From positions 1 through 64,000 of the IMG/VR virus record IMGVR_UViG_3300015360_000024: 64,000 bases of DNA. One strand, written 5' to 3'. How positions within the stretch are numbered: position 1 is the stretch's first letter; every line of letters starts with the position of its first letter. This stretch comes from a virus. The translations under genes and the position numbers were made by a program. The notes under the pieces are model-generated. The model searched no databases, was not told the origin of the DNA, and saw only the letters and a program-made list of their open reading frames with translations. Shown piece by piece: positions 33,654 through 54,981 of this stretch.

Positions 33654-33726
33654 TGGTTCCGGAGGGAATCGAACCCCCATTCGTCTCTTTAGGAAAGAGC
33701 TGCCTTGTCCGTTGGGCCACGGAACC
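33654..33726 (-). tRNA. tRNA-Arg(CCU)
   Basis: Cloverleaf, loop UU-CCU-AA. Confidence 0.9.
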
Positions 33727-33732
33727 ATTTCG

Positions 33733-33805
33733 CGCATCCGGCAGGGGTCGAACCTGCAGCCTTTCGGGTAGAAGCCGATTGCTCAATCCATTGAGCTACG
33801 GATGC
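33733..33805 (-). tRNA. tRNA-Arg(UCU)
   Basis: Cloverleaf, loop CU-UCU-AC. Confidence 0.9.
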
Positions 33806-33881
33806 CTAAGCTACCTTCGAACCGGCTGCGGTCTTCGAGCGTTCATCAGGGTTGTTATCTTCCTCGGAAGAGTCACCGTTG

Positions 33882-34322
33882 TCAATTCCGATTACACCCT
33901 TGGTCGCCTTGCGCGTTGATGGGACGTACTCGCCGTCCTCTGGCCCCTTGACGTAGGAGAGCTGGAACCTTCATGATGGCTTCATGCCGCTGCTTGCCGA
34001 GGTCATCGGTCAGCTTCATGTCTGGATGCGTTCTGGATTTCTCCTCGGCCTCCCTCCACGCCTGATCAATCACTCGACGCATCTGAGCAGCATTAGCGTC
34101 GGTGGACGCATCGTTGATGATACTGACGATGCTGCCCGGGAAGTAGGCGCCGTCATTGAACATCGTCCAGTACATGCTGGATCCATCGTCCTGGCGGCTC
34201 ACACGAAGAAACCACATCCCCCACTTCTTACGGAGGGATTCGAACATCAGACGGTCCTTGTCAGGAACGCGATATCCAACCCACTGCTCTCCGTCGCGAT
34301 TCATCAAGCCGATGTTGGCCAT
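33882..34322 (-). CDS. hypothetical protein
   Basis: 146 aa. Confidence 0.6.
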   Translation of the reverse strand: MANIGLMNRDGEQWVGYRVPDKDRLMFESLRKKWGMWFLRVSRQDDGSSMYWTMFNDGAYFPGSIVSIINDASTDANAAQMRRVIDQAWREAEEKSRTHPDMKLTDDLGKQRHEAIMKVPALLRQGARGRRVRPINAQGDQGCNRN

Positions 34323-34354
34323 GGGCCTATCTACAGGTCATGGGTCTACTTATT

Positions 34355-34837
34355 TCACGCGCTCATCAGCTCGTTGTATTTGAACTTTTCTCCGAGTGCT
34401 TCGTAGATGTCGATAGTCTCGGTGTCGAGCCTCTTTACGATGTCGCCGTTGTAGACGTGGATGTACATCGGGACTCGTACTGTCCGAGCGACGAATTGCT
34501 TGCCCAACTCTGTGATTTTGTAGAATCCGGCGTGCGGGCTTCCGTCGCTTCGACCTTCGGGCATCTCTTCGATGAGGCCCCAGTAGCGGAGCTTGGCGCA
34601 CTCGCGATCGGTCGCGTTCTGCTCGATGAGGTAGCTCGGTACATGGAGCCACTCATTCGCGTCTGGCCGTCGAAAGTACCGATCGATCAACAGTAGTGCG
34701 TAGGCCATGAAGCTGTTCAGCTTGCGCTTGTAGAGCTTAACGTACTGGTTGCAGCACGGACACGGGGCGCCAGCTTCGAAGCGTTCGCGAAGCCACTGCT
34801 TGGCCTCTTCCAGGGTGCGTTGGTCGGGCTGTGACAT
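34355..34837 (-). CDS. Zn-ribbon plus winged-helix-like phage protein
   Basis: CPCCNQ...AKLRYWGLIE...YKITELGKQF. Confidence 0.75.
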   Translation of the reverse strand: MSQPDQRTLEEAKQWLRERFEAGAPCPCCNQYVKLYKRKLNSFMAYALLLIDRYFRRPDANEWLHVPSYLIEQNATDRECAKLRYWGLIEEMPEGRSDGSPHAGFYKITELGKQFVARTVRVPMYIHVYNGDIVKRLDTETIDIYEALGEKFKYNELMSA

Positions 34838-34890
34838 GCCCAACCTTCTCAGGAGGGTATGACAATTGTCTAGACCTACGCAAGCACTTG

Positions 34891-34910
34891 CGCGGAAGAC
34901 AGAGGACTCG
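34891..34910 (-). repeat. 20-bp tRNA-Ser 3' fragment identical to 53752-53771
   Basis: CGCGGAAGACAGAGGACTCG at both sites. Confidence 0.8.
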
Positions 34911-34912
34911 GT

Positions 34913-35000
34913 TGGCGGAAGACCAGGGAGTCGAACCCTAACCCTTTTGAGATCGTACCGACTTCCAATCGGACTGCGCGCCACCGCGCATTGATCTTCC
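34913..35000 (-). tRNA. tRNA-Ser(GGA)
   Basis: Long variable arm, G73, encoded CCA. Confidence 0.85.
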
Positions 35001-35038
35001 GTGTGATTCCAACGGTGTTGCCATGATACGATACCAGT

Positions 35039-35521
35039 GTGGAAACACAAGTATGTAGTAAGTGCAGAAAGCGAAAATCGCTGGCCCATTACTATCATCA
35101 GAATGGCATGACAAACGGCCATCGCCGTGACTGCAAAAGCTGCGTGAAGGCTCGCGTAGCTACGACCAAAGAAAAGAACCGAGACAAATACTTAAAGTCG
35201 AAAAACAAATGTGAATGTGGGGCCACAAAGTCCAGGTATGCCATCGGGTGCCGACGCTGCACGAGAAAGGCGGAATGGCGTCTCAATAAGGGTTATGTCG
35301 TAAAGACGGTTGGCGGTACGCAGATCGCTCAGCACCGCGTTGTGATGGAAGAGTCGCTGGGTCGTAAGCTCAGGGATGACGAAAACGTCCACCATCGCAA
35401 CGGGATCAAGAATGACAACCGTATAGAAAATCTAGAACTATGGAGCACCAGTCAGCCGGCCGGGCAGCGCGTGGAGGATAAACTGGCCTGGTGCCGGTGG
35501 TTTCTTGAGCAGTACCAGTAG
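35039..35521 (+). CDS. HNH homing endonuclease
   Basis: [34 protein letters not shown]; N-terminal Zn finger. Confidence 0.9.
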
Positions 35522-35535
35522 GCTCCACAGCCTGT

Positions 35536-35739
35536 TTACCTTCCGTGACGTCGTTTCTTCTCGTGCGGTGCGATCTGTTCGGCCTTCTTCTTCAGCTGCT
35601 CCTGGCGGGTAGCCCATCGCTGCTTCTGAATGTCTGATCGATCTTCCGTGGTGTGACCACACTGCTGGCAGTAGGTGGTCCGTCCCTCACCGTTACGGTG
35701 AACATCCACGAAACCGTAGCCGCATTTTTCACAGGTCAA
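35536..35739 (-). CDS. small Zn-ribbon protein
   Basis: CEKCG...CQQCG. Confidence 0.6.
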   Translation of the reverse strand: MTCEKCGYGFVDVHRNGEGRTTYCQQCGHTTEDRSDIQKQRWATRQEQLKKKAEQIAPHEKKRRHGR

Positions 35740-36409
35740 TTAGTCCCAGTCTCCTCGAAGGTACTTTTTGAGCTGCCACTGTCGGTTCAGGACGTGATCG
35801 GTCACGACTCCATCCTGTGATCTGATCGTTCGACGCTTGTCCGCGCGCATCCCCGATCCGACTTGCTCTCTGCGTGATGACGACAGGGCTGACGACCTTT
35901 GTTCGTTTGCAGCATCCCATATTCTTGCTCGCAGGACTTCTAGAGCGGTTTCTTTGTTCTGATGCTGAGACCGCTCTGATTCACAGCGTACCTTGATACC
36001 AGTCGGTACGTGCGTGAGAATGACGGCGCTATCCGTCACGTTCCGGTGCTGACCTCCTGCACCAGATCCACGGCAATACGCCCACTTCAAGTCCGCTTCT
36101 CGGACAACGACCTGGGTCTCGGTAGGCTCAGGCAGAACAGCAACCGTAATGGTGCTCGTCTGCATGCGCCCACGCTTCTCTGTGGGAGGAATTCTTTGCC
36201 ACCTGTGTCCACCTGATTCGTTGGCAAACGCGGCGGCAGCGCCCTTCCCTGATGCCCTGAACACGATGAGTCCAGGGCGTTCCTCTACGAGTTCGAGGTC
36301 AAAGTGACCTCCGGCTCCCCATCTTCGCGTAGATCGAGAACTGGTCTTGGACCAATAATTTGGCGTCGTCACCGCCCTCACCGCTTCGTATTTCCACAAA
36401 GACTGACAT
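35740..36409 (-). CDS. class I peptide chain release factor homolog (minimal, about 222 aa) expressed via +1 frameshift
   Basis: Frame 0 MSVFVEIRSGEGGDDAK...RRSL* (36 codons); +1 frame DLELVEE...RWQRIPPTEKRGRMQTS...GSGAGGQH...ERSQHQNK; junction GGAGG-TCA-CTT-TGA-C. Confidence 0.9.
36298..36312 (-). promoter_or_regulatory. prfB-type programmed +1 ribosomal frameshift site
   Basis: Internal SD GGAGG (36312-36308), 3-nt spacer, CTT-TGA-C (36304-36298). Confidence 0.9.
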
Positions 36410-36430
36410 TGTGGGACGAGCCTAGCATAT

Positions 36431-36604
36431 TCAGAACTCTATAACTATAACCGTCGACTTGGGCTCGTCCTGGCGCATCGGCCGCTCCTCTTCGTAGTAC
36501 GGCGCCTCGATCTGTAGAGGCTGCTGGATCTTCTCTTGAGGACAGCTTGGACAGTGATGCCAAGCGGGACGCGCATGGGGGCACAGTGGAATGTCCATAC
36601 CCAT
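36431..36604 (-). CDS. hypothetical 57-aa protein
   Basis: MGMDIPLCPH...HCPSCP...VIVIEF, between the ligase and release factor genes. Confidence 0.5.
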   Translation of the reverse strand: MGMDIPLCPHARPAWHHCPSCPQEKIQQPLQIEAPYYEEERPMRQDEPKSTVIVIEF

Positions 36605-36615
36605 AGTGTAGCCCG

Positions 36616-44291: not shown

Positions 44292-44418
44292 TGGACCAAC
44301 CAGGAGTTGAACCTGGATCTCTCCCTTGCATGGGTAACCATTTCTCGGCCGGCTCGCTTGCGCGAACAATGGATTTAAAACGGGTTTTTTGAGCGTGCTG
44401 CCGTTGCACCATCGGTCC
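44292..44418 (-). ncRNA. tRNA-Y RNA chimera 3
   Basis: GGACCGA/UUGGUCC-A; insert with UUGUUCGC-GCAA-GCGAGC(C)GG and GGUUACC. Confidence 0.8.
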
Positions 44419-44534: not shown

Positions 44535-45716
44535 CTACTCTACGCCCGTCACCACTCCGGCCCCAACGGTCTTACCACCCTCACGGACGGCGAATCGAGT
44601 TCCCGGCTCCATTCCGACTGGCTTGTGCAGCTTGAACGTGATGGCTGCGTGCTCGCCGGGACGAATCATGTCGAGATCTCCAGTGCCCTCCACGGTCCCC
44701 GTGACGTCGGTCGTCCCGAAGAAGAACTGCGGCCGGTATCCCTTGAAGAACGGCGTGTGACGACCGCCCTCGTTCGTGGGAATGACGTACAGCTCTGCGT
44801 GGCCAATCGTGTGCGGCTTCACCGAGCCCGGAGCGATCAGAACCTGGCCACGAACGACCTCGTCCCTCTTCACTCCGCGCAGGAGGATTCCGCAGTTCTC
44901 ACCCGCCCGAGCCTCCTGCTGATCCTTGTGGAACATCTGGATGCCCGTAACAGCGACCTGGCGAGGCTTCTGGTCTTCGCCTTCAAGGCCGATGATCTCG
45001 ACCGTAGCGCCGAGGGCTAGAACGCCTCGGTCGATGCGTCCGGTGACCACGGTGCCACGACCTTCGATCGTGTGAACTCCCTCGATGGGCATCATGAACG
45101 GGGACGTGAAGTCACGGATCGGGTCCGGGAAGTGCTTGTCCATCGTCTCGACCAACTCCTTGATACACGCGACATCCGCGTGATCTTTGCCGTGCTCTCC
45201 GATGGCAGCCAGCGCCTTGAGGGCAGAGCCGCAGACCATCGGCGAGTCGAGGTACTTCTGAGCCTTGAGGAAGTCCGAGGTCTCCTCTTTGACCAGCTCC
45301 AGCAGCTCTGGATCCGCGACGTCCACCTTGTTGATGAACACCACGATGTGCGAGACGCCGACCTGACGAGCCAGAAGGATGTGCTCCTTGGTCTGCGGCT
45401 GAGGTCCCTGAGATCCGTCCACCAGGAGCACTGCGCCGTCCATCTGGGACGCGCCTGTGATCATGTTCTTGATGTAGTCGGCGTGCCCCGGGCAGTCGAT
45501 GTGCGCGTAGTGCCGAGTCTCTGACTCGTACTCGACGTGAGCGATGTTGATGGTGATACCTCTGGCCTTCTCCTCGGGGGCTGAGTCGATCTGATCGAAC
45601 TCGACTGCCTTCCCGCCTCGAATCTTTGCCATCACCTTGGTGATAGCGGCCGTCAGGGTGGTCTTGCCGTGATCGACATGACCGATGGTTCCTACGTTCA
45701 CATGCAACTTGCTCAT
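44535..45716 (-). CDS. tuf: elongation factor Tu (divergent)
   Basis: [51 protein letters not shown]. Confidence 0.97.
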
Positions 45717-45827
45717 CGTCGTACTCGCTCTCGTGGGCTCTTAACCCGTCTCCTCTGCAGAAACTCCCTTCCACGTCGCCGATAATTCGGCTCCAGACGC
45801 TTCCGTTCGTTGTTGGGTAGCAAAAAA

Positions 45828-46022
45828 TCAAATGAGTCCCTTTTCCTTCGCGATCCACTCGGTGATCACCAGGGTTCCTTCGGTGTCAGCCTTGTAGACC
45901 TCGGAGTCGTCGTCGATTTGGGACTTGGGTATCCAGAACTCTTCGCCCTCGATTACAACGAGCAGGGCCTTCTCGGTGTCACGCTTGACCGTGACGTTCT
46001 GGATCTGAACTTTTTCTGCCAT
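45828..46022 (-). CDS. small conserved phage protein
   Basis: TEKALLV...WIPKSQI...ITEWIAKEKGL. Confidence 0.7.
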   Translation of the reverse strand: MAEKVQIQNVTVKRDTEKALLVVIEGEEFWIPKSQIDDDSEVYKADTEGTLVITEWIAKEKGLI

Positions 46023-46024
46023 CT

Positions 46025-46100
46025 TGGTGGGCCCTCTCGGGTTCGAACCGAGGATCGATCGGTTATGAGCCGACTGCTTTGACCTCTAAGCTAAGGGCCC
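46025..46100 (-). tRNA. tRNA-Ile2(CAU)-like
   Basis: GGGCCCU acceptor, CU-CAU-AA, CCA. Confidence 0.85.
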
Positions 46101-46195
46101 GCAGTCATTGCGACATGTTGCAAGTACCCGTGCGCCCCCCAATTGTCAACGATGCCCGGTTGCTGGATCTGCCCAACCTGTAGTATTCATGGGGC

Positions 46196-46741
46196 ATGTT
46201 CAGGTCGCTGATCAACGAGTGCCGATCCGTCCTTGAAGACGGCGAAGAGTCTGCCGATAAGCCCGCCGTGAACACGGCTGAGGTGGCCCCGAAGGCCAAG
46301 CGGAGGAACAAGCACGATCGAGCGGCCCACAAGATCGGCGAACTACTGGGCACCCACCCGGGGAACTTGTCTCGCAAGAAGATGCTCAAGATGGTTCGCC
46401 ACATGAAGCATCACTTCGAGAAGGGTCACGGGGCAGGCGAAGGCGAAGGCGACTACAAGACCGTCGATGCAGATGATCTGGCAACGCTTGGTCGTCACGC
46501 GGTCGACGTCTCGTCGCACGCCAACGCGATGATGAGAATGCCTGGTCCGGCGCACCACATGGCATCGCACCTCTGCAACCATGTTGCGAACGCTCACGAC
46601 CGGATGAGCAAGTTCTTCAAGATGAACGCCGACGAGGAGTCATCTGAGCTGCATGGCAACGAGTGCGAGAAGCACCGTTCACTCGCCGCCGACCACCGTA
46701 AGAAGGCTCGCCGTCACGGTCACTACGACGGCGAGTACTAG
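46196..46741 (+). CDS. His-rich hypothetical protein
   Basis: 181 aa with many His in HxxxH-like spacing. Confidence 0.65.
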   Translation: MFRSLINECRSVLEDGEESADKPAVNTAEVAPKAKRRNKHDRAAHKIGELLGTHPGNLSRKKMLKMVRHMKHHFEKGHGAGEGEGDYKTVDADDLATLGRHAVDVSSHANAMMRMPGPAHHMASHLCNHVANAHDRMSKFFKMNADEESSELHGNECEKHRSLAADHRKKARRHGHYDGEY

Positions 46742-46813
46742 TTCGCGCTTGCGGTGATCTCGGAAGTCACCGCTGTGTCGGCACCTAGGACGTGTCGAAG
46801 CGCAACCCGTTCG

Positions 46814-46885
46814 TCCGCCCGCTGGGAGTCGAACCCAGATGAACCGCTTATAAAGCAGCCGCATTAGCCGTTATGCGACGGGCGG
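46814..46885 (-). tRNA. tRNA-Ile(UAU)
   Basis: GCUGC-UU-UAU-AA-GCGGU. Confidence 0.85.
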
Positions 46886-46889
46886 ACGG

Positions 46890-46957
46890 CAGGCTGTGCG
46901 GGAATTGAACCCACCAAGGATGCTTTTGGAGAGCGTCCCCCACCCAGTGGCCAGCCT
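46890..46957 (-). tRNA. tRNA-Trp(CCA), reduced D arm
   Basis: CU-CCA-AA loop, G73. Confidence 0.7.
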
Positions 46958-46967
46958 ATATCGTTTG

Positions 46968-47040
46968 TGCATCTAGCAGGAGTCGAACCTGCGTTTTAGC
47001 TTTCGGAGAGCTACGTCCTGTCCAGCTGGACGATAGATGC
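46968..47040 (-). tRNA. tRNA-Arg(CCG)
   Basis: Cloverleaf. Confidence 0.9.
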
Positions 47041-47041
47041 A

Positions 47042-47116
47042 TGGTGACTCTACAGGGACTCGAACCCCGATTTCAGCGTCCGTAGCGCTGCGCTCTGTCC
47101 ATTGAGCTATAGAGCC
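47042..47116 (-). tRNA. tRNA-Arg(ACG)
   Basis: Cloverleaf, CCA. Confidence 0.9.
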
Positions 47117-47122
47117 GAGAAG

Positions 47123-47195
47123 CGGTTCCACCGAGATTCGAACTCGGAACTTAGGTTTCGTAGACCTACGTGATATCCATTTCCACCACGGAACC
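47123..47195 (-). tRNA. tRNA-Arg(ACG)
   Basis: Cloverleaf. Confidence 0.9.
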
Positions 47196-47228
47196 AAGAA
47201 AAGAAGCTGCCCTCCACGTCAGAAGTGC

Positions 47229-47605
47229 TTATCGGCCGCTGACTTTCATCAACCAGACCCGTCCAACTACTAAGGCTGGCTCCGGGATCGACCCTCGTCT
47301 GGTAGAGAGCAAAAAATGCTGAATGTACGCAGTAAGTCGGGCGGCGACTTCATCAGCCTGGGGGTAGGCGATGTCGCGTAGGATCTGCTCGACGGTGGTC
47401 AGAATTTTGTCGTCCTTCCACCCGCATCCACGAGCGTCCCTATAGAACGAGATCCAGCAATGGATCATATCGTTCTGCCGGAGAGACTCGCAGACGATCT
47501 CAAGCGGTATCCCGCGAGAGTTGTAGGCGGCGAAGACGTTGCCGACTACGACATTTCCGTCCGATGTCTCTCCTGTCTTGAAAAGTTTCCTGCGTCCCGC
47601 GACAT
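47229..47605 (-). CDS. hypothetical protein, apparent indel near the start
   Basis: Frame RRKLFKTG...VFAAYNSRGIPLEIVCE...MIHCW runs open to 47229; the nearest RBS+ATG is out of frame. Confidence 0.45.
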
Positions 47606-47715
47606 TTCGTACCTCCAGGGTTGTTAGAAAAAACGCTCGCCTGACTTACACGGAAGAGTAGCCGCCGCGCACCATACCAGACTGCACCATTACGATTATC
47701 TTGGTGGAAGCGAAT

Positions 47716-47790
47716 TGGAGCCCGCGAAGGGAATCAAACCCTTAACCTCTCCCATACCAAGGGAGTGCTCTATCGTTGAGCTACGCGGGC
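47716..47790 (-). tRNA. tRNA-Thr(GGU)
   Basis: Cloverleaf, CCA. Confidence 0.9.
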
Positions 47791-47798
47791 ATAAACCG

Positions 47799-47870
47799 TA
47801 CACGAGGTGGGGATCGAACCCACGATCTCTGCGATGTCAACGCAGTATTCTTCCGCTGAACTACTCGTGC
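47799..47870 (-). tRNA. tRNA-Val(GAC)
   Basis: Cloverleaf. Confidence 0.9.
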
Positions 47871-47874
47871 AAAT

Positions 47875-47951
47875 TGACGAACAAGAAGTGCAGCTGAGCG
47901 TTTGGATCAGATTATTAGTCAGATTGATAACTCAACTACGACGGCTCGTCA
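47875..47951 (-). ncRNA. Y RNA-like a
   Basis: 5' UGACGAGC(C)G..GUAGUUGAGUUAUC ... CUCAGCUGC..UUGUUCGUCA 3'. Confidence 0.8.
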
Positions 47952-47959
47952 GAAAAAAC

Positions 47960-48019
47960 GGCGAACAAGGAGATGATCGTGGGGTCATTTTCAAGGTAAC
48001 CCATGATCTTCGGCTCGCC
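47960..48019 (-). ncRNA. Y RNA-like b
   Basis: 5' GGCGAGC(C)GAAGAUCAUGGGUUACC ... UUGUUCGCC followed by a U run. Confidence 0.85.
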
Positions 48020-48026
48020 AAAAACG

Positions 48027-48296
48027 TTAGGCCTGATGGATCGGAATCTGGAACGACAGGCCTTTGCCTTCCAACATCTGGTCGTGAAGACGGTCGATGA
48101 GCTTCTCGAACGGGTAGTCGTCGTCTGAGGCGCCGACGTGCGTATGGTCCTCTCCGAGGTATAGGGTCAGCGAGTTGCCACCCCAGTCCGGCGCAAACGA
48201 GACGACCGGCTTGCCGCTGCCTGGACCTTCTCCATCCTCATTGCATCGCTTGACGATATTCCTGAGGATCTCTTCGCATTTCTCTGCTGTCGTCAT
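48027..48296 (-). CDS. hypothetical protein
   Basis: 89 aa. Confidence 0.65.
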   Translation of the reverse strand: MTTAEKCEEILRNIVKRCNEDGEGPGSGKPVVSFAPDWGGNSLTLYLGEDHTHVGASDDDYPFEKLIDRLHDQMLEGKGLSFQIPIHQA

Positions 48297-48312
48297 TCAT
48301 GGCCTCGGTGAG

Positions 48313-48387
48313 TGGTAGCGCTTAGGGGTATCGATCCCCTTTCCTCTGTTGGAAAGACAGATGTTCTAGCCAGTGAACTAAAGCGCC
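48313..48387 (-). tRNA. tRNA-Glu(UUC)
   Basis: Cloverleaf, CCA, T loop AUCGAUA. Confidence 0.85.
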
Positions 48388-48468
48388 GTAGGGTGATTTT
48401 TGACTTATTGAAATTAATGGCTACTATTATCCAGATGATCTTGATGTCGATCTCAGCGCGAGGAATTT

Positions 48469-48672
48469 ATGGACATCAAGGAATTGGCGGGCCTGCTCAT
48501 CTTCTACGGTGACCACAAAGATCACTGCGGAATTTCACGTGTACTCTACCACCGAGCTATCACGAACTCGGACCGTCCGGTCACCTACCCGCCATGTGAT
48601 TGCGGCTGGAATGAAGCTCGAAAGAACGCTGCCGGGATCATCAGGACGAGCGGCGCCCATGGATGGCCGTAG
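48469..48672 (+). CDS. hypothetical protein
   Basis: 67 aa, GAGG RBS. Confidence 0.55.
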   Translation: MDIKELAGLLIFYGDHKDHCGISRVLYHRAITNSDRPVTYPPCDCGWNEARKNAAGIIRTSGAHGWP

Positions 48673-48744
48673 AGCACGCCGAGGGAGTTTAACCCGTCGA
48701 TCCTGGTTTTGCAGACCAGTGCCTTACCGCTTGGCTATGCGTGC
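48673..48744 (-). tRNA. tRNA-Cys(GCA)
   Basis: Cloverleaf, U73. Confidence 0.85.
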
Positions 48745-49190
48745 AGAACGAAGTCTGACCAATGTTTGGACGTTTGAATCCTATGACAGTTGGCACAGAG
48801 CAAGATGCATTTGTCGACCTCAGCTTTTAGTTGCTCAGTGTTGTATTTTTTGGGGTGCCTGATCATCAAGGTCACGTCGCCCGTCTTGCTTCCAGGGTCC
48901 TTGTGATGAAATTCCAGGCACGGCAAGCGACTCTCTCCGCACGTCGAGCATCGGCATTGCCCGAGGTACATCGCCCATTCGTGCTTCCTTCGCCAAAACA
49001 GGTTTGACAGGTATGTAGGATTCGCCTGTCTCTTCTTGGCGGCCTTATCTAGGTAGTCAGGCTTGGAGCGCTCTGTTTGGCGATACTTCTTAATGCGATC
49101 CTGGTTATTCAAGTACCAGTGCCGCTTCCTGCATGGCGTGGAGCAAAACTCGCCATCGCTTACTTTGCCATGACAGGTCGCGCACTTCAT
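48735..49190 (-). CDS. HNH endonuclease
   Basis: CSTCGE...CLEFHHKDP...VDKCILLCANCH. Confidence 0.85.
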   Translation of the reverse strand: MKCATCHGKVSDGEFCSTPCRKRHWYLNNQDRIKKYRQTERSKPDYLDKAAKKRQANPTYLSNLFWRRKHEWAMYLGQCRCSTCGESRLPCLEFHHKDPGSKTGDVTLMIRHPKKYNTEQLKAEVDKCILLCANCHRIQTSKHWSDFVLHA

Positions 49191-49267
49191 CTACGCGATC
49201 ATAAAACAACTGTCTACGTCAGATCCAGTGCAATCTGTAGCCAGGCCGCCTGGTGACGTGCAAAAAA

Positions 49268-49331
49268 CGCGAACAAGAAGATGAACCTGGGGGAAATCTT
49301 AAATGGATAACCCAAGCTCGAACGGCTCGCG
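49268..49331 (-). ncRNA. Y RNA-like c
   Basis: 5' CGCGAGC(C)G...UUGGGUUAUC ... UUGUUCGCG followed by a U run. Confidence 0.85.
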
Positions 49332-49340
49332 AAAAAGATA

Positions 49341-49466
49341 GACGAACATGGTGCGTGGTTGGACGTTGAGAGCGGATTCAAACCGCTACCTCCGGGGTTT
49401 TCAGCCCAGGCGCTCTCTCAGTTAAGCTACTCCGATGGTGCGGTAATCCAATCACTTCGGCTCGTC
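49341..49466 (-). ncRNA. Y RNA-like d enclosing a tRNA-Phe(GAA)-like domain
   Basis: Ends GACGAGC(C)GAAG / AUGUUCGUC; upper stem UUGGA/UCCAA; internal D arm, CU-GAA-AA loop, T arm AGCGG-UUUGAAU-CCGCU; acceptor only 3 bp. Confidence 0.75.
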
Positions 49467-49467
49467 T

Positions 49468-49543
49468 TGGCGACCCTACGGGGATTCGAACCCCGATTGA
49501 CCGACTGAGAATCGGCTCTCCTGGCCAGTTGGAGGATAGGGTC
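49468..49543 (-). tRNA. tRNA-Glu(CUC)
   Basis: Cloverleaf, CCA. Confidence 0.9.
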
Positions 49544-49547
49544 AAAA

Positions 49548-49612
49548 AGCGAACAATTTGGTGAAGCAGGGGTTTTTCAACCATTTGATAACCCTGCCTC
49601 GTCCGGCTCGCT
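49548..49612 (-). ncRNA. Y RNA-like e
   Basis: 5' AGCGAGC(C)GG..GCAGGGUUAUC ... CCCUGC..AUUGUUCGCU followed by a U run. Confidence 0.85.
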
Positions 49613-49617
49613 CAAAA

Positions 49618-50001
49618 CTAAAGCGCTACTGAGTAGAGCGCTGGGTAGCGTAGTCTGGCCTTGCGTTCCTTTTCGAGGAAGGCTGGCAGCTCGATGAATT
49701 CTGTGCCGTGGTCTTCTCCGCCAAAGATCCAGATCAGCGTCATTCTCGCCTGAGCGATGAGACGCTCCTGGTTGAATCGGCCTCCGTCTGTACCATCTTG
49801 CCGGATGATCAACGCCGAGCCCCACACGCTTCGGTCTGAGGCATCTGGCTTCCAGTCCGGGGCTCCGATGCCGATACTCAGCGGAAGAAGCCCTCCGATC
49901 CTGCCGATGACATCCATCATCTTCAGCAGCAAGCGGTGATCGGTAAGGAACGGCCCGCTTTCAAGTTCGGCCCAAAGCCCGATAACATCATGCATTCTCA
50001 T
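49618..50001 (-). CDS. hypothetical protein
   Basis: 127 aa, AGGAG RBS. Confidence 0.55.
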   Translation of the reverse strand: MRMHDVIGLWAELESGPFLTDHRLLLKMMDVIGRIGGLLPLSIGIGAPDWKPDASDRSVWGSALIIRQDGTDGGRFNQERLIAQARMTLIWIFGGEDHGTEFIELPAFLEKERKARLRYPALYSVAL

Positions 50002-50183
50002 CTCCTAACGGGTGGGCTTCGCTTATCTGCAATCCGTAGGCCTTTCGGTATCATGCGAGCAACTACCACGAGCCTGTCGGAGACGATCTTGGTGCTCAGC
50101 TTTGGCACAGTGTGATAAGAGTTCAAGGAGTGATCGACGGAATCGAACCGCCGTAGTCGACGTAACCGGCCCAGGTACACCCT

Positions 50184-50258
50184 TGGCGAACCACCCCAGA
50201 CTTGAACTGGGAACCCATCGCTTAACAAACGATCGCTCTACATTGGAGCTAGTGGTTC
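50184..50258 (-). tRNA. tRNA-Asn(GUU)
   Basis: Cloverleaf, CCA. Confidence 0.9.
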
Positions 50259-50267
50259 AAACAGAAG

Positions 50268-50339
50268 CTCCCTAACCAGGACTCGAACCTGGAACCTAAC
50301 GGTTAACAGCCGTTTGCTCGACCATTGAGCTATTAGGGA
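50268..50339 (-). tRNA. tRNA-Asn(GUU)
   Basis: Cloverleaf, G73. Confidence 0.9.
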
Positions 50340-50399
50340 ATAGGGCGAACCGGACCTCTTGCGAGGTCACTCCCTAGACTTCCGTCTTAGTAGTTCGCT

Positions 50400-50475
50400 T
50401 GGAGCTGATGACAGGAGTTGAACCTGCAACCGTCGCTTTACAAAAGCGCTGCGCTGCCAATTGCGCCACACCAGC
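50400..50475 (-). tRNA. tRNA-Thr(UGU)
   Basis: Cloverleaf, CCA. Confidence 0.9.
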
Positions 50476-50481
50476 ATTACG

Positions 50482-50552
50482 TTCGGGGGCAGAGACTCGA
50501 ACTCTGATAACCGGCTTCAAAGACCAGCGTCCTACCGTTGAACGACCCCCGA
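50482..50552 (-). tRNA. tRNA-Gln(UUG)
   Basis: Cloverleaf. Confidence 0.9.
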
Positions 50553-50585
50553 GTGACAAGATCAAGATCCGTGTATATTCCTGTT

Positions 50586-50765
50586 ATGAACGATAAGAGA
50601 AAGCAGAGCCTCTACTTCCCAGAAGACATGCTGGCCGAGGTTCAGGCCGAGGCTACTCGGCTTGACCGATCTCTCTCCTGGGTGGTTCAGCGAGCCTGGA
50701 TCATCTCAAGGGAGAAGATGAAGGAGATCCCTTCGATCAACGAACCGCCTCGCGAGACGGACTAG
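50586..50765 (+). CDS. TIGR04563 / MXAN_4361-like small ribbon-helix-helix protein
   Basis: KRKQSLYFPEDMLAEVQAEATRLDRSLSWVVQRAW. Confidence 0.8.
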   Translation: MNDKRKQSLYFPEDMLAEVQAEATRLDRSLSWVVQRAWIISREKMKEIPSINEPPRETD

Positions 50766-50837
50766 AGCCCACGGCCGGACTTGAACCGGCAGCCTGTGCT
50801 TTACGAAAGCACTGCACCGCCATTGTGCTACGTGGGC
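50766..50837 (-). tRNA. tRNA-Thr(CGU)
   Basis: Cloverleaf. Confidence 0.9.
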
Positions 50838-50907
50838 AGGAAGCTCCCTGGCTGATAAGGCCTACTTTCGCCCGGGACAGGCTAGCTCCGTATCAAGGAG
50901 CAAGTAG

Positions 50908-50978
50908 AGCAGGTAACGGGAATCGGACCCGTCTAGCCAGGGTGGAAGCCTGGAGCCTCGCCAGTCGGCCTTACCTGC
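50908..50978 (-). tRNA. tRNA-Gly(UCC)
   Basis: Cloverleaf, U73. Confidence 0.85.
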
Positions 50979-51305
50979 AAAACGTCACTTCGCGAACCAT
51001 GGCTTCTCGATACCCTCTTCAAGCGTCTTCAGAACCATCTCCAGAAGATCGCTTGCCACCTTTTCTCCGTGGAAGGCGAGGAGGTCTTGATGAACCTCGC
51101 TGCTGAACGGCATGTCCTGACCATTGGTCGGGTTGACGATGTACGGCCTGCTTCCGACCTTGTTCTATAGCCGCGCTTCGTGCATTCCTCGTTGAACTGG
51201 TCGATCGTCATAGAGCGATCTTAGCTCTTAGCCACCACCAGCCAAAGCGAATGCCGGTGACAACAGAGAGAGCGCCGAGAATTTCCAGAGGGCAAATGTG
51301 CATGG

Positions 51306-51382
51306 TGGGGTGCCTAGGGGGAATCGAACCCGCCTCTTCTTGAGCCACAATCAAGCGCGCGAACCGTTACGCTATAGGCACC
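51306..51382 (-). tRNA. tRNA-His(GUG)
   Basis: G-1:C73, CCA. Confidence 0.9.
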
Positions 51383-51408
51383 ATAATCGTTCAATTGACA
51401 AGACGTCG

Positions 51409-51479
51409 TGCGGGTGGAGGGACTCGAACCCTCGTCTCAGCGTTGGCAACGCAGCGTCCTACCATTGGACGACACCTGC
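51409..51479 (-). tRNA. tRNA-Gly(GCC)
   Basis: Cloverleaf. Confidence 0.85.
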
Positions 51480-51553
51480 AAATTGGCGCCAGTCGTAGGC
51501 TCAGGCCATGGCGCCTCAGCGCCTGAGTTGTTCCTCGTACCGGCAAAAATCAG

Positions 51554-51625
51554 TCGGGGTGAGAGGGATCGAACCTCCGGCTTCTTGGTCCCGAACCAAG
51601 CGTGATACCACTTCACTACACCCCG
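51554..51625 (-). tRNA. tRNA-Pro(CGG)
   Basis: Cloverleaf. Confidence 0.9.
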
Positions 51626-51966
51626 TTGTTACGTCTTCTGTGCGTGCGATCCGCGTGACAGTTCGCGCAGACCACCTCGCATTTCGCGATCTCTTTGTTG
51701 ATTGTCGCTTCCGATAGGTACTGACCTACCATGGAGGCGATGTCGGAAACTTTGATGCCGCTCACGTGATCGAACTGCAAAACCCATGGTCGAAACTCGT
51801 TCTTGCAGTCGATGCAGCCACCCTTCTTCGCATCATTCACGAGTGTCCTGAGACGCTCGCGAATGATCTTCCTTGCTACCTTTTTGCGCTCTGAGTATCG
51901 GACGCGGTGCTTCGCGTAATGATCTCGTTGATACAAACGCTTGTCGTCCAGTGTCTCAAACGGCAT
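51616..51966 (-). CDS. HNH endonuclease
   Basis: GCIDC...VLQFDHV...IAKCEVVCANCH. Confidence 0.8.
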   Translation of the reverse strand: MPFETLDDKRLYQRDHYAKHRVRYSERKKVARKIIRERLRTLVNDAKKGGCIDCKNEFRPWVLQFDHVSGIKVSDIASMVGQYLSEATINKEIAKCEVVCANCHADRTHRRRNNGV

Positions 51967-51998
51967 CGGGACAACACTATCAGTCCCGATCCGTCTCG

Positions 51999-52070
51999 TC
52001 GAGCTGACTGGAATCGAACCAGCGTTCTCGTGTTCCCCGAACACGCGCGATACCACTTCGCTACAGCTCG
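51999..52070 (-). tRNA. tRNA-Pro(GGG)
   Basis: Cloverleaf. Confidence 0.9.
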
Positions 52071-52077
52071 AAATTTG

Positions 52078-52167
52078 TGCCGCCCTGGGAGTCGAACCCG
52101 CATCCAGCGCCCCGATCAGAAGCATTTCCTCTTCCTATTGGCTCTGGTTCCTGCCAGGAGAAGCGAC
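52078..52167 (-). ncRNA. tRNA-like RNA with enlarged purine-rich anticodon arm
   Basis: T loop GGG-UUCGACU-CCC, wobble-rich acceptor GUCGCUU/GGGCGGC-A, arm CCAG...CUGG. Confidence 0.45.
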
Positions 52168-52180
52168 GAAAACGCTTGCG

Positions 52181-52265
52181 CGGAAGGTGAGGGGATCGAA
52201 CCCCCGCAGCCTTTCGGCTGGCTCCGGTTTAGCAAACCGGCCTGTTGCCACTCCAGCAACCTTCC
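52181..52265 (-). tRNA. tRNA-Ser(GCU)
   Basis: Long variable arm, G73. Confidence 0.9.
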
Positions 52266-52270
52266 ATTCG

Positions 52271-52341
52271 TGGATCGCTAGGGAGTCGAACCCTAATCTC
52301 TCGGGTGCAAGCCGAGTGTACGCCCGTTGTACTAGCAACCC
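52271..52341 (-). tRNA. tRNA-Ala(UGC)
   Basis: G3:U70. Confidence 0.9.
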
Positions 52342-52348
52342 GTTGTCG

Positions 52349-52419
52349 TGGATCCGTGGAGAATCGAACTCCAATTCCGGCAGTGCGATTGCCGTGTCTT
52401 CCCTTTGGACGACGAACCC
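52349..52419 (-). tRNA. tRNA-Ala(CGC)
   Basis: G3:U70, loop AU-CGC-AC. Confidence 0.85.
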
Positions 52420-52424
52420 ATTCG

Positions 52425-52495
52425 TGGAGCTACCGAGAATTGAACTCGGATCTCTTGTCTGCCAGACAAGCATCTTCCCTTTGGACGATAACCCC
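52425..52495 (-). tRNA. tRNA-Ala(GGC)
   Basis: G3:U70. Confidence 0.9.
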
Positions 52496-52501
52496 AAACA
52501 G

Positions 52502-52579
52502 TGGCGGGAACGACGAGATTTGAACTCGCGATCTTCGGCGTGACAGGCCAACGGGGACGGCCAACTCCCCTACGTTCCC
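52502..52579 (-). tRNA. tRNA-Asp(GUC)
   Basis: Cloverleaf, G73, CCA. Confidence 0.9.
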
Positions 52580-52587
52580 AGAATCAG

Positions 52588-52660
52588 CGGGCGCAACGGG
52601 AATCGAACCCGCCTGGTCTTGATCGACAATCAAGCGCCCTCACCAGAGAGCAATACACCC
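52588..52660 (-). tRNA. tRNA-Asp(GUC)
   Basis: Cloverleaf, G73. Confidence 0.85.
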
Positions 52661-52733
52661 AGAGAAGAAACGGGCAGGCGAGCTTGTATCGCCTTGTGGA
52701 GCTTATGAGCATCCAACCCGCTTCAGAGAGTCG

Positions 52734-53639
52734 TTACGAGCGAGGACGAGCGCCGTTGCCGTTGCCACCAATGTTGGTCATCAGGGCGAGGGCCTCGGAC
52801 TGAGCCTTCGAGTTGGCAGCACCGTCGACTGCTGCGCGAGCCAGCTTGACGTTCTCCTCGTAGGCCGTCTTGAGCTGAGTCTGCAGTTCCTTGATCTGCG
52901 CGTCTGCGGTGGCAGCCGTCTGCGCCAGCCGCGCGTTGTCGAACTGGAGCTTCTCCACATGGGTAGTGTTCTGGATCGTGGCGATCTGCGCCTGGTGGCT
53001 GAAGTCCTTCGTCAGCACGTTCTTCAGGATGGCCTCTGCCCTGGTGACCTCCTTCTTCACTTCCTCGTCGAAGGTGGCGGCCTTGGCGAGGGCAGCCTGG
53101 TACTCGGTCTCCTTCGTCTTCAGGACGAACTCGCGGTTGGCGACGTCCTTCTCGAAGGCCTCCTGGCGATCACGCTCCTGGTTGTTGCGCACCCGAACCT
53201 GCTCGTTCCAGCTGTCGTTGTCGTTCTTGCGGGCCTGGGTGAGCTTGTAGGTGTAGTCCTCTTGCTCGCGAGTCCGGGCTTGGGCCAGCTGGTTCACCAG
53301 GTTCTGGTGGTCCAGTTCGATCTGCTCCTTCTGCTTCGCCAGCTCGTCGAGGGTCGCCGCGTGCTGGGCCTTGACCTCGTCGATCGTCAGGAGCACCTGA
53401 TCGACCCCGTGCAGGTTCTGCATGTCCTGCTTCTTGAGGGCGATCGAATCGTCGACCGCTTGTAGTTCCGCGTGCTTCTGGATGATCTCCTCGGAGATCT
53501 TGCTCAGAGTCCCCTGGATGGTGACTCCAGCGGAAGTGATGCCGCTGAGCGTCTTCGAGAGGTCGATGCTCTGCGCCTTCGAGATGGATGCGGCATTGCG
53601 GGTCGCCTGTGCCTGCTGCTTCTTCGTCTTCGTTGCCAC
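52734..53639 (-). CDS. long coiled-coil protein
   Basis: 301 aa, Q/E/K/A-rich heptads; GTG start after GGAGAG. Confidence 0.8.
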   Translation of the reverse strand: MATKTKKQQAQATRNAASISKAQSIDLSKTLSGITSAGVTIQGTLSKISEEIIQKHAELQAVDDSIALKKQDMQNLHGVDQVLLTIDEVKAQHAATLDELAKQKEQIELDHQNLVNQLAQARTREQEDYTYKLTQARKNDNDSWNEQVRVRNNQERDRQEAFEKDVANREFVLKTKETEYQAALAKAATFDEEVKKEVTRAEAILKNVLTKDFSHQAQIATIQNTTHVEKLQFDNARLAQTAATADAQIKELQTQLKTAYEENVKLARAAVDGAANSKAQSEALALMTNIGGNGNGARPRS

Positions 53640-53753
53640 GGTAGCTCTCCTGGAAATGATTGAACCCCAAAACGGGGACACCTAGGCCTGTAATTGGGCC
53701 GCGTGTACTCTCGCAGGACCGTCTGACATCGAAGGGCAATTGTCTACGGGTCG

Positions 53754-53838
53754 CGGAAGACAGAGGACTCGAACCCCATGCCCCGTAAGCATCATCCCGC
53801 TTCGAACGGGCGCCCCTGCCATCAGGAGTATATCTTCC
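53754..53838 (-). tRNA. tRNA-Ser(CGA)
   Basis: Long variable arm, G73. Confidence 0.85.
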
Positions 53839-53912
53839 ATGCCGCCTCAACCCTTGCGGGAAGCTTTTAAAGGACTCGGTGCTGCCACCGAAGCTTTACG
53901 AAGCGCAGATCC

Positions 53913-53990
53913 TGGTGCCCCCAGAAGGACTCGAACCTTCAACAAACCGGGTAAGAACCGGGTGCTCTATCCAAATTGAGCTATGGAGGC
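53913..53990 (-). tRNA. tRNA-Lys(CUU)
   Basis: Cloverleaf, CCA. Confidence 0.9.
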
Positions 53991-53995
53991 TAGGC

Positions 53996-54057
53996 GGGAC
54001 GATAACCATCATCTTCGGTCCGTTGCCGGACAAGAAAGTTGAGGACGAATAGGTCCC
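53996..54057 (-). ncRNA. minimal circularly permuted Y RNA-like module (no tRNA body)
   Basis: GGGAC/GUCCC closing stem; UUGUCCG-GCAA-CGGAC(C)GAAG; UGGUUAUC. Confidence 0.75.
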
Positions 54058-54114
54058 ATAAAATCATCAGGTACAACCATGCTGATGAGCCATGCCGTCG
54101 CGGCAAACGTCGGG

Positions 54115-54187
54115 TGCCCCGAGGTCGAGTCGAACGACCTTCTCCTGATCTTCAGTCAGGCGCTTGGACCACCCAAGCTGTCGGGGC
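54115..54187 (-). tRNA. tRNA-Phe(GAA)
   Basis: Cloverleaf. Confidence 0.9.
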
Positions 54188-54213
54188 AAAAGGGGGCTCA
54201 TGAGGACACCCCC
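54188..54213 (-). terminator. rho-independent terminator-like hairpin
   Basis: GGGGG...CCCCC-UUUU directly before tRNA-Phe. Confidence 0.5.
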
Positions 54214-54330
54214 GCGTCATAAACAACTATTCGGTTGTCAGAGATTTGTCGTCGCAAAGGCCTCGGCTCAGGTTGTCCAGGATTCACACATGGTGAAGTT
54301 ACGCCTGGTCGTGCTTCGCTTTTGGCTTCG

Positions 54331-54403
54331 ATGGGGAGGTGAGACTCGAACTCACAACATTCGGCTTCAGAGACCGACGTTCCGCCAGTTGAACTACTCC
54401 CCA
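54331..54403 (-). tRNA. tRNA-Gln(CUG)
   Basis: Cloverleaf. Confidence 0.9.
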
Positions 54404-54418
54404 AAATCAGATCTGTCG

Positions 54419-54489
54419 TAGGGCTGCAGGGAATCGAACCCTGGTCGGCCGGTTAAAAGCCGGTTGCTCTGCCATTGAGCTACAACCCC
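54419..54489 (-). tRNA. tRNA-Lys(UUU)
   Basis: Cloverleaf. Confidence 0.9.
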
Positions 54490-54544
54490 AGAATGGGAGA
54501 AGTAGCTCGTGTTTTCGGTTGATTGAATTCATTGGATCTTTCAG

Positions 54545-54627
54545 TGGGAGTGGGAGGAGTTGAACCTCCAAGTGCTCATCACACGACTGGTTTACAGCCA
54601 GCTTGCGTCGCCAGTTGCCGCACTCCC
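54545..54627 (-). tRNA. tRNA-Tyr(GUA)
   Basis: Long variable arm, CU-GUA-AA. Confidence 0.9.
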
Positions 54628-54631
54628 AGAA

Positions 54632-54670
54632 ACGAAGAAAGCCTCCAAGGGGTTTTTCCTTGGAGGCTTC
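54632..54670 (-). terminator. terminator hairpin upstream of tRNA-Tyr
   Basis: AAGCCUCCAAGG-loop-CCUUGGAGGCUU followed by UCUUCGUUUC. Confidence 0.6.
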
Positions 54671-54903
54671 TGGTCTAGGTATTTACAGTCTACCTATGTC
54701 AGAAGCCCCCTGGGATCATTCGCCTTGGCCTGGAGGTGGAACGGGCGGGGATAGGTTTCCAGGCAGCCGACGGTCTCCACGCTCAACGCAATAAACCCAC
54801 GACGCCACGAGCGATTGCTCGTACCGAGGCAGGCTTGCGTTGTTTTGGTGGATGAAGAAGACATGACCGTTGGTGTTTGCTTGGAGGTTGCTGTCGCTCT
54901 AAT

Positions 54904-54981
54904 TGGTAGCGGGAGTGGGATTTGAACCACACGGCCTCAAGGTTATGAGCCTTGCGAGCTACCAGGCTGCTCTATCCCGCA
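54904..54981 (-). tRNA. initiator-like tRNA-fMet(CAU)
   Basis: 1:72 mismatch, A11:U24, CCA; only two G:C pairs next to the anticodon loop. Confidence 0.85.

Follow-up and report, generated by a model that had tools for sequence, protein, structure and literature searches.

Candidate Ro60-type Y RNAs, some of them shaped as whole tRNAs, in the tRNA array of a phage that encodes its own Ro60

Ro60 and its Y RNAs are conserved from bacteria to humans, and Ro60 is a major autoantigen in lupus and Sjögren syndrome. What the Y RNAs of bacteria and phages do, and why they mimic tRNAs, are standing questions. YrlA has the form of a circularly permuted tRNA, with a closed acceptor stem and with its ends in the Ro60 stem, and an origin from a dimeric tRNA has been proposed for it (Wang et al. 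2018, 10.1101/312249). The motif proposed for Rsr binding in bacteria is GNCGAAN0-1G, and the animal Ro60-contact motif is GGUCCGA (Chen 2014, PMC4201824). The Ro60 of the Thermus phage phiLo binds the Yrl RNAs of the phage and the PNPase of its host in vitro (NAR 2025, PMC12135203). Here we describe nine repeated RNA elements within a tRNA array in the first 64,000 nucleotides (nt) of the IMG/VR virus record IMGVR_UViG_3300015360_000024 (hereafter, the window). Judged from their sequences, these elements are very probably Y RNAs of the Ro60 type, partnered with a Ro60 that the phage itself encodes.

The locus resembles these systems in part. Like phiLo, the phage has a Ro60 gene with a Y-like RNA upstream of it, so that phiLo serves as a precedent for a complex with host PNPase similar to the RYPER complex; unlike the present phage, which is known from sequence alone, phiLo has two Yrls beside Ro60, and neither placement in a tRNA array nor tRNA-shaped forms were reported for it (PMC12135203). 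The YrlA and YrlB RNAs of Rsr share with the elements described here a GNCGA(A)G stem, an association with an encoded Ro60, T and D arms (found here in the element Yd and in the three tRNA-shaped RNAs) and a presence in several copies per genome. In contrast to YrlA and YrlB, the copies in the window are distant from Ro60, lie in a tRNA array and do not attain the Rfam YrlA gathering score. The whole contig measures 193,958 bp (56.6% G+C, CheckV completeness 91%), the window being its first 64 kb. Its portal, sheath and baseplate proteins are those of a distant T4-like myovirus, and an assignment to the actinophages was dropped because the closest portal matches, at 33-36% identity, are to distant T4-like myoviruses of Flavobacterium and Microcystis. 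A megablast comparison found no DNA-level match to the island among GenBank phages.

The elements share a recurring helix on the minus strand, with (G/A)CGAGC-C-GA as its 5' strand and UU-GUUCG(C/U) as its 3' strand. The preliminary description of the window had recognised nine such Y-like modules in four topologies, all on this strand, and this count stands, with four short copies, one copy holding a tRNA-like domain in its loop, three tRNA-shaped copies and one capped hairpin. The copies are listed below together with the Ro60 gene and its neighbouring RNA. Scores refer to the covariance models R1, built from the four short copies only, R2, a general model, and R3, used here for the capped form; E-values are rough, since calibration was short.

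47956-48022, minus strand: Ya, short canonical Y RNA (R1 79.6 bits, R2 69.3 bits; RF01656 E 0.005)
47872-47953, minus strand: Yb, short canonical Y RNA (R1 64.2 bits)
49264-49334, minus strand: Yc, short canonical Y RNA directly after Yd (R1 84.2 bits)
49337-49469, minus strand: Yd, Y RNA with a tRNA-like domain in its loop (R2 33 bits, E 6e-5)
49544-49615, minus strand: Ye, short canonical Y RNA (R1 82.2 bits)
44145-44275, minus strand: tRNA-order Y RNA 1 (Rfam tRNA 41.7 bits over 128 nt; R3 55.2 bits)
44292-44418, minus strand: tRNA-order Y RNA 2 (Rfam tRNA 40.8 bits; R3 52.4 bits)
43225-43363, minus strand: tRNA-order Y RNA 3 (R3 49.7 bits)
53997-54057, minus strand: capped Y module in a plain hairpin (pattern match, fold, R3 53 bits)
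173208-173390 of the contig, same strand as Ro60: tenth Y RNA, 183 nt, found by R1
173450-175123 of the contig: Ro60 (TROVE + vWA), 557 amino acids (TROVE 134.7 bits, Ro60-vWA 210.4 bits)

The four short copies are hairpins of 67-82 nt, scoring 64-84 bits, in which a 7-bp lower stem and a bulged C lead to a 9-bp upper stem full of compensatory changes; the loop opens with GGGUUAYC, and a U run is usually present. Ya illustrates the layout, with its 7-bp lower stem, bulged C, GAAG, 9-bp upper stem, GGGUUACC, CUUGUUCGCC and U run. The loop of Yd holds, in tRNA order, a D arm, a CUGAAAA loop and a T arm, with a partial Rfam tRNA match at 49368-49432. In the four capped copies the helix is reversed in orientation and closed by a GCAA tetraloop; the plain hairpin among them (53997-54057), which has the lower stem GUCCG/CGGAC and a GCAA loop, occupies the gap between tRNA-Phe and tRNA-Lys. 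In each of the nine copies the 5' strand contains GAGCCG or GACCG, the 3' strand contains UUG, and a C is bulged. The GCCGAAG of Ya and Yd is the full GNCGAAN0-1G Rsr motif (Chen 2014, PMC4201824), from which the remaining window copies deviate (GCCGUC, GCCGAC, GCCGGC).

The window holds no TROVE gene, as had been stated at the outset, and a search of the whole genome for TROVE and RtcB, proposed as a check in the preliminary description, located Ro60 at 173450-175123 and no RtcB. The tenth Y RNA ends 60 nt upstream of this gene and shares the helix of the island (GCGAGCCGAAG / GGUUACC / CUUGUUCGC); on its own genome, R1 recovers both this RNA and the fifth copy, Yd. The nine copies in the window are not adjacent to Ro60, which lies ~120 kb downstream in the contig as recorded.

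The association with Ro60 extends well beyond this phage. A query for related loci with the single Ro60 protein gave no matches; an alignment query gathered 80 viral loci with a Ro60 homologue. In 51 of these 80 unrelated loci R1 found 89 matches, every one of them on the Ro60 strand and outside the Ro60 open reading frame (ORF), most less than 1 kb from it, and those beside Ro60 often stand in tandem, in sets of two to five. When the 53 best matches were aligned (alignment A4), 96.6% of the cells paired, against 32-47% with slid partners, and 15 of 17 pairs had compensatory (double) changes, although these pairing counts are inflated by the fitting of A4 to the model structure. GNCGA is present in 30 of the 53 aligned matches and the full GNCGAAN0-1G motif in 16, a conservation that is partly circular, as UUAYC and GNCGA are contained in R1-R3. 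Scans of whole genomes covered 25 large Ro60 contigs and 13 GenBank phages, and here R2 matched five of five cultured Ro60 phages and 22 of the 25 contigs, with no match in five large TROVE-less phages (1.59 Mb in total). In Mycobacterium phage Catera, as in Gordonia phage Cashline, R2 finds its matches shortly before the Ro60 gene, at places where Rfam YrlA also matches below threshold. Microbacterium phage Big4, cultured and 192 kb in length, carries eight unannotated Y-like RNAs upstream of Ro60 (ON637770.1, 98795-102962, plus strand). Agrobacterium phage Atu_ph07 has a Y-like RNA of 40 bits (NC_042013.1, 467017-467089, minus strand) just upstream of gp680, an archaeal-type peptidyl-tRNA hydrolase gene ~117 kb round the circular map from Ro60, and a second Y-like RNA at 446651-446722. 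The Ro60-contact helix, the co-occurrence with Ro60 and a structure supported by covariation are thus all found for the repeated RNAs, and their initial assignment to the Y RNAs of Ro60 is well founded; family identity, Ro60 association, covariation, adjacency to tRNAs and recurrence are the points that our data support directly.

The placement of these RNAs among tRNAs and among genes for translation and RNA-end processing, also pointed out beforehand, was borne out. The canonical copies beside tRNAs are separated from them by spacers of 0-2 nt, in the orders Ye-tRNAGlu-Yd-Yc and Ya-Yb-tRNAVal: Ye adjoins the 5' end of tRNA-Glu (49543-49468), Yd begins 2 nt past the CCA of the same tRNA, and Yb ends 1-2 nt before tRNA-Val (47870-47798). 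Eight other Ro60 phages have between them 15 Y matches at a distance from Ro60, every one inside a tRNA array and sharing the strand of its tRNAs: 12 are 0-4 nt from a tRNA and 14 within ~20 nt, several take up the whole gap between two tRNAs, and the exception, in contig G002, is ~1.8 kb from the nearest called tRNA. A 465-kb phage (G001) resembles the present one in that its five Y matches all fall in the tRNA island and Ro60 is ~120 kb distant, and in Streptomyces phage TomSawyer a Y RNA begins where tRNA-Asp ends. In Gordonia phage Sixama (NC_070762.1, 88036-91137), Ro60 is directly followed by a tRNA array, in which a 700-nt gap between tRNA-Asn and tRNA-Arg is unannotated.

The three tRNA-shaped copies carry this proximity further, the Y helix being part of a tRNA. 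Y RNA 1 (44275-44145) is a complete tRNA-Lys(CUU) cloverleaf with an encoded CCA, in which a GCAA-capped Y arm stands between the D and anticodon stems and the 7-nt anticodon loop is canonical (CUCUUAA, with U33 and a purine at 37). In Y RNA 2 (44418-44292) the capped arm lies within the 5' strand of the anticodon stem, and in Y RNA 3 (43363-43225), which has a type II D arm, it replaces the anticodon loop; neither has a canonical loop, both having A33 (in Y RNA 2, in the residual loop). The extra arm of a tRNA-order Y RNA is ~57 nt long, and decoding with such an arm is only hypothetical. R3 found 27 further tight matches in 15 Ro60-flanking loci and five tRNA-island loci, a count that includes three outside loci used to build R3, and all 27 are on the strand of Ro60 or of the tRNAs. 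The lower stems of the capped form vary without losing complementarity, and the form is capped by GCAA, CUUG or similar loops. Among the 31 tight matches, 21 are enclosed by an ARAGORN call of a "tRNA with intron" of 120-138 nt, and 26 have a TTCRA T-loop downstream, mostly 19-24 nt past the module. With 20 full-length examples, RNAalifold recovered the acceptor, D and T stems together with the capped helix, and compensatory changes were present in 17 of the 19 pairs of these three tRNA stems. A typical member consists of a whole tRNA in which the Y arm comes after the D stem and before the anticodon stem; the anticodon loop is often a canonical YU-NNN-AA, and the Lys(CUU) copy of the window is of this type.

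Several candidates for this form were rejected. R3 gave no match in TROVE-less phages and no credible match in eight cultured Ro60 phages, the one in phage BONAISHI lying inside an SbcC-like coding sequence. R3 matches longer than ~63 nt were set aside as junctions of two tandem canonical Y RNAs; a capped-form pattern match in contig G012 had no complementary stem and was taken as chance; and an exact 20-mer from the capped core had no match in IMG/VR.

In the literature searched we found no description of tRNA-order Y RNAs, which apparently form an undescribed class. By its predicted fold, the class is the unpermuted counterpart of YrlA. The order of YrlA is T arm, acceptor stem (AS), D arm (T-AS-D), whereas the tRNA-shaped forms have the order D, Y arm, anticodon, T, which is the circular permutation of it; their acceptor stems are open, some with an encoded CCA, their Ro60 stem is closed by a tetraloop, and many keep an anticodon arm. 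Yd differs from YrlA as well, its order being D, anticodon (AC), T (D-AC-T). An R2 match at 44215-44361 (minus strand, 27.2 bits) takes the 5' strand of its helix from one tRNA-order RNA and the 3' strand from the next; it spans these two neighbours and was rejected as a separate gene, and its arrangement is the dimeric-tRNA configuration proposed as the origin of YrlA. The tandem pair at 44418-44145 displays exactly this configuration. A broader reading can be imagined, in which phage tRNA arrays would hide widespread tRNA-order Y RNAs that bring the phage Ro60 and an exonuclease to enzymes that read the anticodon arm, or that serve as Ro60-tagged decoys for host anticodon nucleases, and in which such RNAs would be ancestral to the permuted YrlA via tandem duplication, the dimeric-tRNA origin of Wang et al. 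2018. Taken whole, this reading is speculative and we consider it doubtful.

As the best explanation of the locus as a whole, which we consider likely on present comparisons, the nine elements would be genuine Y RNAs of the phage Ro60, placed in the tRNA array and matured by tRNA enzymes. Their positions abutting tRNAs suggest that they share a transcript with these and are freed from it by RNase P and by processing at tRNA 3' ends. In such a scheme, host tRNA-processing enzymes would excise the RNAs from the common transcript: the RNase P cut at the 5' end of a tRNA would create the 3' end of the preceding Y RNA, processing of a tRNA 3' end would create the 5' end of the following one, and the three tRNA-shaped forms would be matured in the manner of tRNAs. 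Maturation by this route is a claim that we favour mildly. Such an arrangement would recall small RNAs punctuated by tRNAs, in which RNase P and RNase Z release the neighbouring small RNA, the tRNA-miRNA units of herpesviruses being a case of tRNA-punctuated processing of other small RNAs. The permuted tRNA genes of algae and archaea (cited in Wang 2018) are similar in their circular permutation of the tRNA fold. Unlike the Y RNAs, the products of these two systems are tRNAs or miRNAs and not Ro60 ligands, and processing in the present phage is predicted from gene positions. The conserved helix, with its bulged C and with GNCGA and UUG on its 5' and 3' strands, would be the site at which the mature RNAs bind the phage Ro60. 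The parts that vary between copies, be it a plain loop, a loop with a tRNA-like domain or an entire tRNA body, may tether Ro60 to different partners or substrates. The likeliest partners would be the PNPase of the host or other exonucleases that attack structured RNAs, tRNAs among them, a model that follows the RYPER complex and Thermus phage phiLo. By this analogy, it is possible that Ro60-Y ribonucleoproteins act on or through PNPase-type exonucleases of the host, although we hold this only tentatively. The processing route, Ro60 binding and the downstream effector are thus the parts of the scheme that we infer.

The same region carries a number of other genes, and everything that had been listed for the island is on the minus strand of 33,653-54,982. 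These features are as follows.

33653-54982, minus strand: tRNA array (44 ARAGORN tRNAs plus extra Rfam tRNA-like hits)
35740-36409, minus strand: release factor without domain 1 (PPT (PxT) and GGQ motifs; +1 frameshift)
36619-37266, minus strand: Rnl2-like RNA ligase frame, 216 codons (KLDG, EGVV and KAK motifs; PHROG 548 E 1e-9)
39029-39224, minus strand: two tRNA mimics without a Y module (Rfam tRNA 40.1 and 42.2 bits; folds)
39234-39593, minus strand: PTH2-like ORF (PF01981 25.1 bits, cut-off 23)
43126-43208, minus strand: signal recognition particle (SRP) RNA, 4.5S-like (RF00169 42.1 bits, gathering score 40)
43780-44145, minus strand: cyclic-phosphate-processing receiver (cREC) protein (PF20274 47.5 bits)
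44535-45716, minus strand: EF-Tu (569 bits to NF000766; ~57% identity to bacterial EF-Tu)

Most of the identities proposed in the preliminary description were upheld: EF-Tu and cREC are clear, the SRP RNA is just over its gathering score, and tRNA mimics are present. The PTH2-like ORF is a weak candidate, as its match, just over the cut-off, covers only the C-terminal half of the profile (positions 50-115 of 115). The "full tRNA set" was slightly overstated, as the 44 tRNAs are indeed there but serve 19 amino acids, Trp being missing. According to ARAGORN, all 44 tRNAs of the 193,958-bp genome are in this array and on the minus strand, and neither a tRNA-Trp nor a transfer-messenger RNA was found in the genome. 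The tRNA at 38823-38900 (minus strand) has an anticodon loop of 8 nt, for which ARAGORN gives the anticodon "taag". One of the two mimics is a 113-nt tRNA-like RNA; in the other, of 78 nt (39147-39224), the anticodon arm is a 9-bp stem with a GCAA cap and no Y motif. A further tRNA-like RNA of 84 nt (34917-35000, minus strand), with an 8-bp acceptor stem, a 6-bp D stem, a long variable arm and the loop UUGGAAG, has a weak Rfam tRNA-Sec match; it overlaps the annotated start of ORF 34355-35122, whose true start is probably downstream. The SRP RNA conserves apical domain IV, including CAGGCCCGGAAGGGAGCA, and its basal stem is weak and largely missing, so that it combines the conserved domain of a bacterial small SRP RNA with a marginal RF00169 score. 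It sits between a tRNA-order Y RNA and an ORF of unassigned function (42215-43228), which probably starts at 43045 and then does not overlap it.

The release factor was correctly described as frameshift-gated. Its frame opens at an ATG at 36409 and after 36 codons reaches CUU UGA C (36304-36298), with a GGAGG (36312-36308) 3 nt upstream of this site, and the +1 frame continues to 35740; ORF 36378-36833 is a spurious frame. The site and the GGAGG are those of an RF2-type programmed frameshift, but the product is of the PxT type and prfA-like, not SPF, and scores 202 bits as prfA versus 130 bits as prfB, so that the reasoning behind RF2 autoregulation does not carry over unchanged. The shift would sense termination at UGA, the activity of host RF2, and not that of this RF1-type factor itself. 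Since the codon-reading domain is retained, the protein is expected to be a termination factor and not a rescue factor. The putative RNA ligase has the motifs and the PHROG 548 match, and ORFs in XacN1 and in huge phages are 37-42% identical to it, but no Pfam match was obtained and an in-frame TAG (36958-36960) breaks the frame; the gene may be defunct (a pseudogene), or read through. Sequence searches of the PDB gave nothing usable for this frame or for four unassigned ORFs. The amber-interrupted frame lies directly upstream of the release factor, which is of the UAG/UAA type, and no CUA suppressor tRNA was found. Another Ro60 phage, G024 (the IMG/VR contig of L093), has an RF-1-domain frame with one in-frame TAG at 90503-90832, which recalls the interrupted genes of the window. 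No match to RtcB, PF09414 or a 2H phosphoesterase (PF13563) was found in the whole genome, and ORF 52734-53681, once considered a ligase, encodes a Q/A/K-rich coiled-coil protein. Four HNH-type endonuclease genes are scattered across the island. Jumbo and huge phages have comparable genes for translation and RNA repair (Iyer et al. 2021, PMC7824862), with large tRNA sets, elongation factors, release factors, RNA ligases and cREC, and with TROVE in a subset.

Several points weigh against reading the nine elements as Ro60-type Y RNAs released by tRNA processing. None of them, in the whole genome, reaches the gathering score of Rfam Y_RNA (RF00019) or YrlA (RF02553); the sole YrlA match of the genome (E 0.53) is located on a pair of tRNA-Arg genes. 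The only non-tRNA hints from Rfam are to the nematode stem-bulge RNAs of RF01656 (E 0.005 and 0.22, below gathering score), whose members are Y RNA homologues. To these are added the inflated pairing counts of A4 and the partial circularity of the motif conservation noted above. The U runs of the short copies suggest that some may end by termination and not by RNase P; a promoter and terminator scan of 43-50.1 kb found no more sites than in shuffled sequence and did not flag the Y copies. Finally, the sequence is a metagenome assembly, represented by a single IMG/VR contig.

Other explanations can account for part of these observations. The capped modules could be intron-like or mobile inserts in tRNA genes, excised and then healed and sealed by cREC and the ligase, with the Y shape being secondary. 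Removal of the insert from 44275-44145 does leave a clean 71-nt tRNA-Lys(CUU), an identical 19-mer is common to three inserts that stand at different positions in different tRNA bodies, many relatives with various anticodons keep a canonical YU-NNN-AA loop beside the insert, and cREC lies directly downstream. However, removal from the other two copies leaves non-canonical A33 loops, a second tRNA-Lys(CUU) is already present at 53913-53990, one copy (53997-54057) is in no tRNA at all, and neither a splicing endonuclease nor an intact ligase was found. The inserts also keep a full Ro60-type helix with compensatory changes (GUUCGC/GCGAGC, GUCCG/CGGAC, GCCCG/CGGGC, ACCCG/CGGGU) and occur next to Ro60 genes as well, which a selfish insert would not need. 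We therefore judge an intron-like origin unlikely. That the repeats are a family peculiar to this phage (e.g. terminators or processing signals of the tRNA operon) and Y-like by chance is extremely improbable. In its favour, the short copies are hairpins rich in GC with a U run behind them, and no copy passes the Rfam Y RNA thresholds. Yet the model made from these copies alone retrieves RNAs that flank Ro60, without exception on its strand, at 51 of 80 loci, and R2 has no matches in the five Ro60-less phages; in addition, the bulged C, GA/UU and UUAYC are conserved without being needed by a terminator, and the copies escape a simple terminator scan.

The preliminary description had proposed one integrated counter-defence island, in which spare translation parts replace or repair what immunity damages and the Y-like RNAs capture or reprogram the Ro60 of the host. 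The tRNAs, EF-Tu, release factor, Pth2, ligase and cREC do lie on one strand within 21 kb, cREC domains are tied to RNA ligases in jumbo phages (PMC7824862), the Y-like RNA of Atu_ph07 stands just upstream of a peptidyl-tRNA hydrolase gene, and binding of a host Ro60 is still conceivable. However, a full-length Ro60 gene is present in the phage genome, immediately preceded by a cognate Y RNA that has the same helix, so that capture of a host Ro60 is not needed. Among the 25 other large Ro60 contigs, cREC is present in seven, an RF-1 domain in five and EF-Tu in one, all far from the Y RNAs and from Ro60 wherever positions could be compared; co-occurrence across phages, which the proposal predicted, was found for Ro60 with Y RNAs and for Y RNAs with tRNA arrays, but not for the protein genes of the island. 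The claimed repair capacity is likewise unsupported, as the ligase frame contains a TAG and the genome shows no other ligase or 2H enzyme, and the release factor, with its codon-reading domain, would serve termination and not rescue. The four HNH genes suggest piecemeal gain. Taken together, an integrated island is decidedly unlikely. The sparse and unlinked occurrence of its protein genes, the interrupted ligase and the non-rescue release factor suggest that these genes are variable accessory cargo of the tRNA region; EF-Tu, the release factor, the PTH2-like protein, cREC, the broken ligase, the SRP RNA and the four HNH genes would be cargo such as collects around the tRNAs of large phages, and not one machine. 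A single island that hijacks the host Ro60 is an attractive picture, but an unsupported one, which we correct here. The region may still have a role in counter-defence against tRNA-targeting immunity.

The short copies also invite comparison with animals. Their lower stem has a bulged C and GA/UU, GGG closes their upper stem of ~9 bp, the loop opens with UUAUC, and a U run follows at the 3' end, all as in metazoan Y RNAs and nematode sbRNAs (PMC4726728). In A4 (53 phage Y RNAs), the UUA of UUAYC is invariant and directly follows an upper stem ending in GG(G), an invariance that is partly circular, and this design of upper stem and UUAYC is that of human Y1, Y4 and Y5 and of nematode sbRNAs, in which UUAUC is required for activity in DNA replication. 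The sequence similarity to the phage copies is nevertheless short, and it may reflect homology or convergence. In animals, a link to DNA replication has been drawn for both the upper stem and UUAUC (Kowalski and Krude 2015, PMC4726728).

We found neither the placement in tRNA arrays, nor the tRNA-order form, nor the shared animal-like design in the literature searched. If the Y RNAs of phages are often built into tRNA arrays, as our comparisons suggest, this would offer a simple route for their maturation and a functional link to tRNA metabolism during infection. With a tRNA-order form beside the permuted YrlA, the proposed origin of Y RNAs from tRNA could be tested on actual sequences, and the upper-stem and UUAUC design appears to be common to the Y RNAs of phages and animals.

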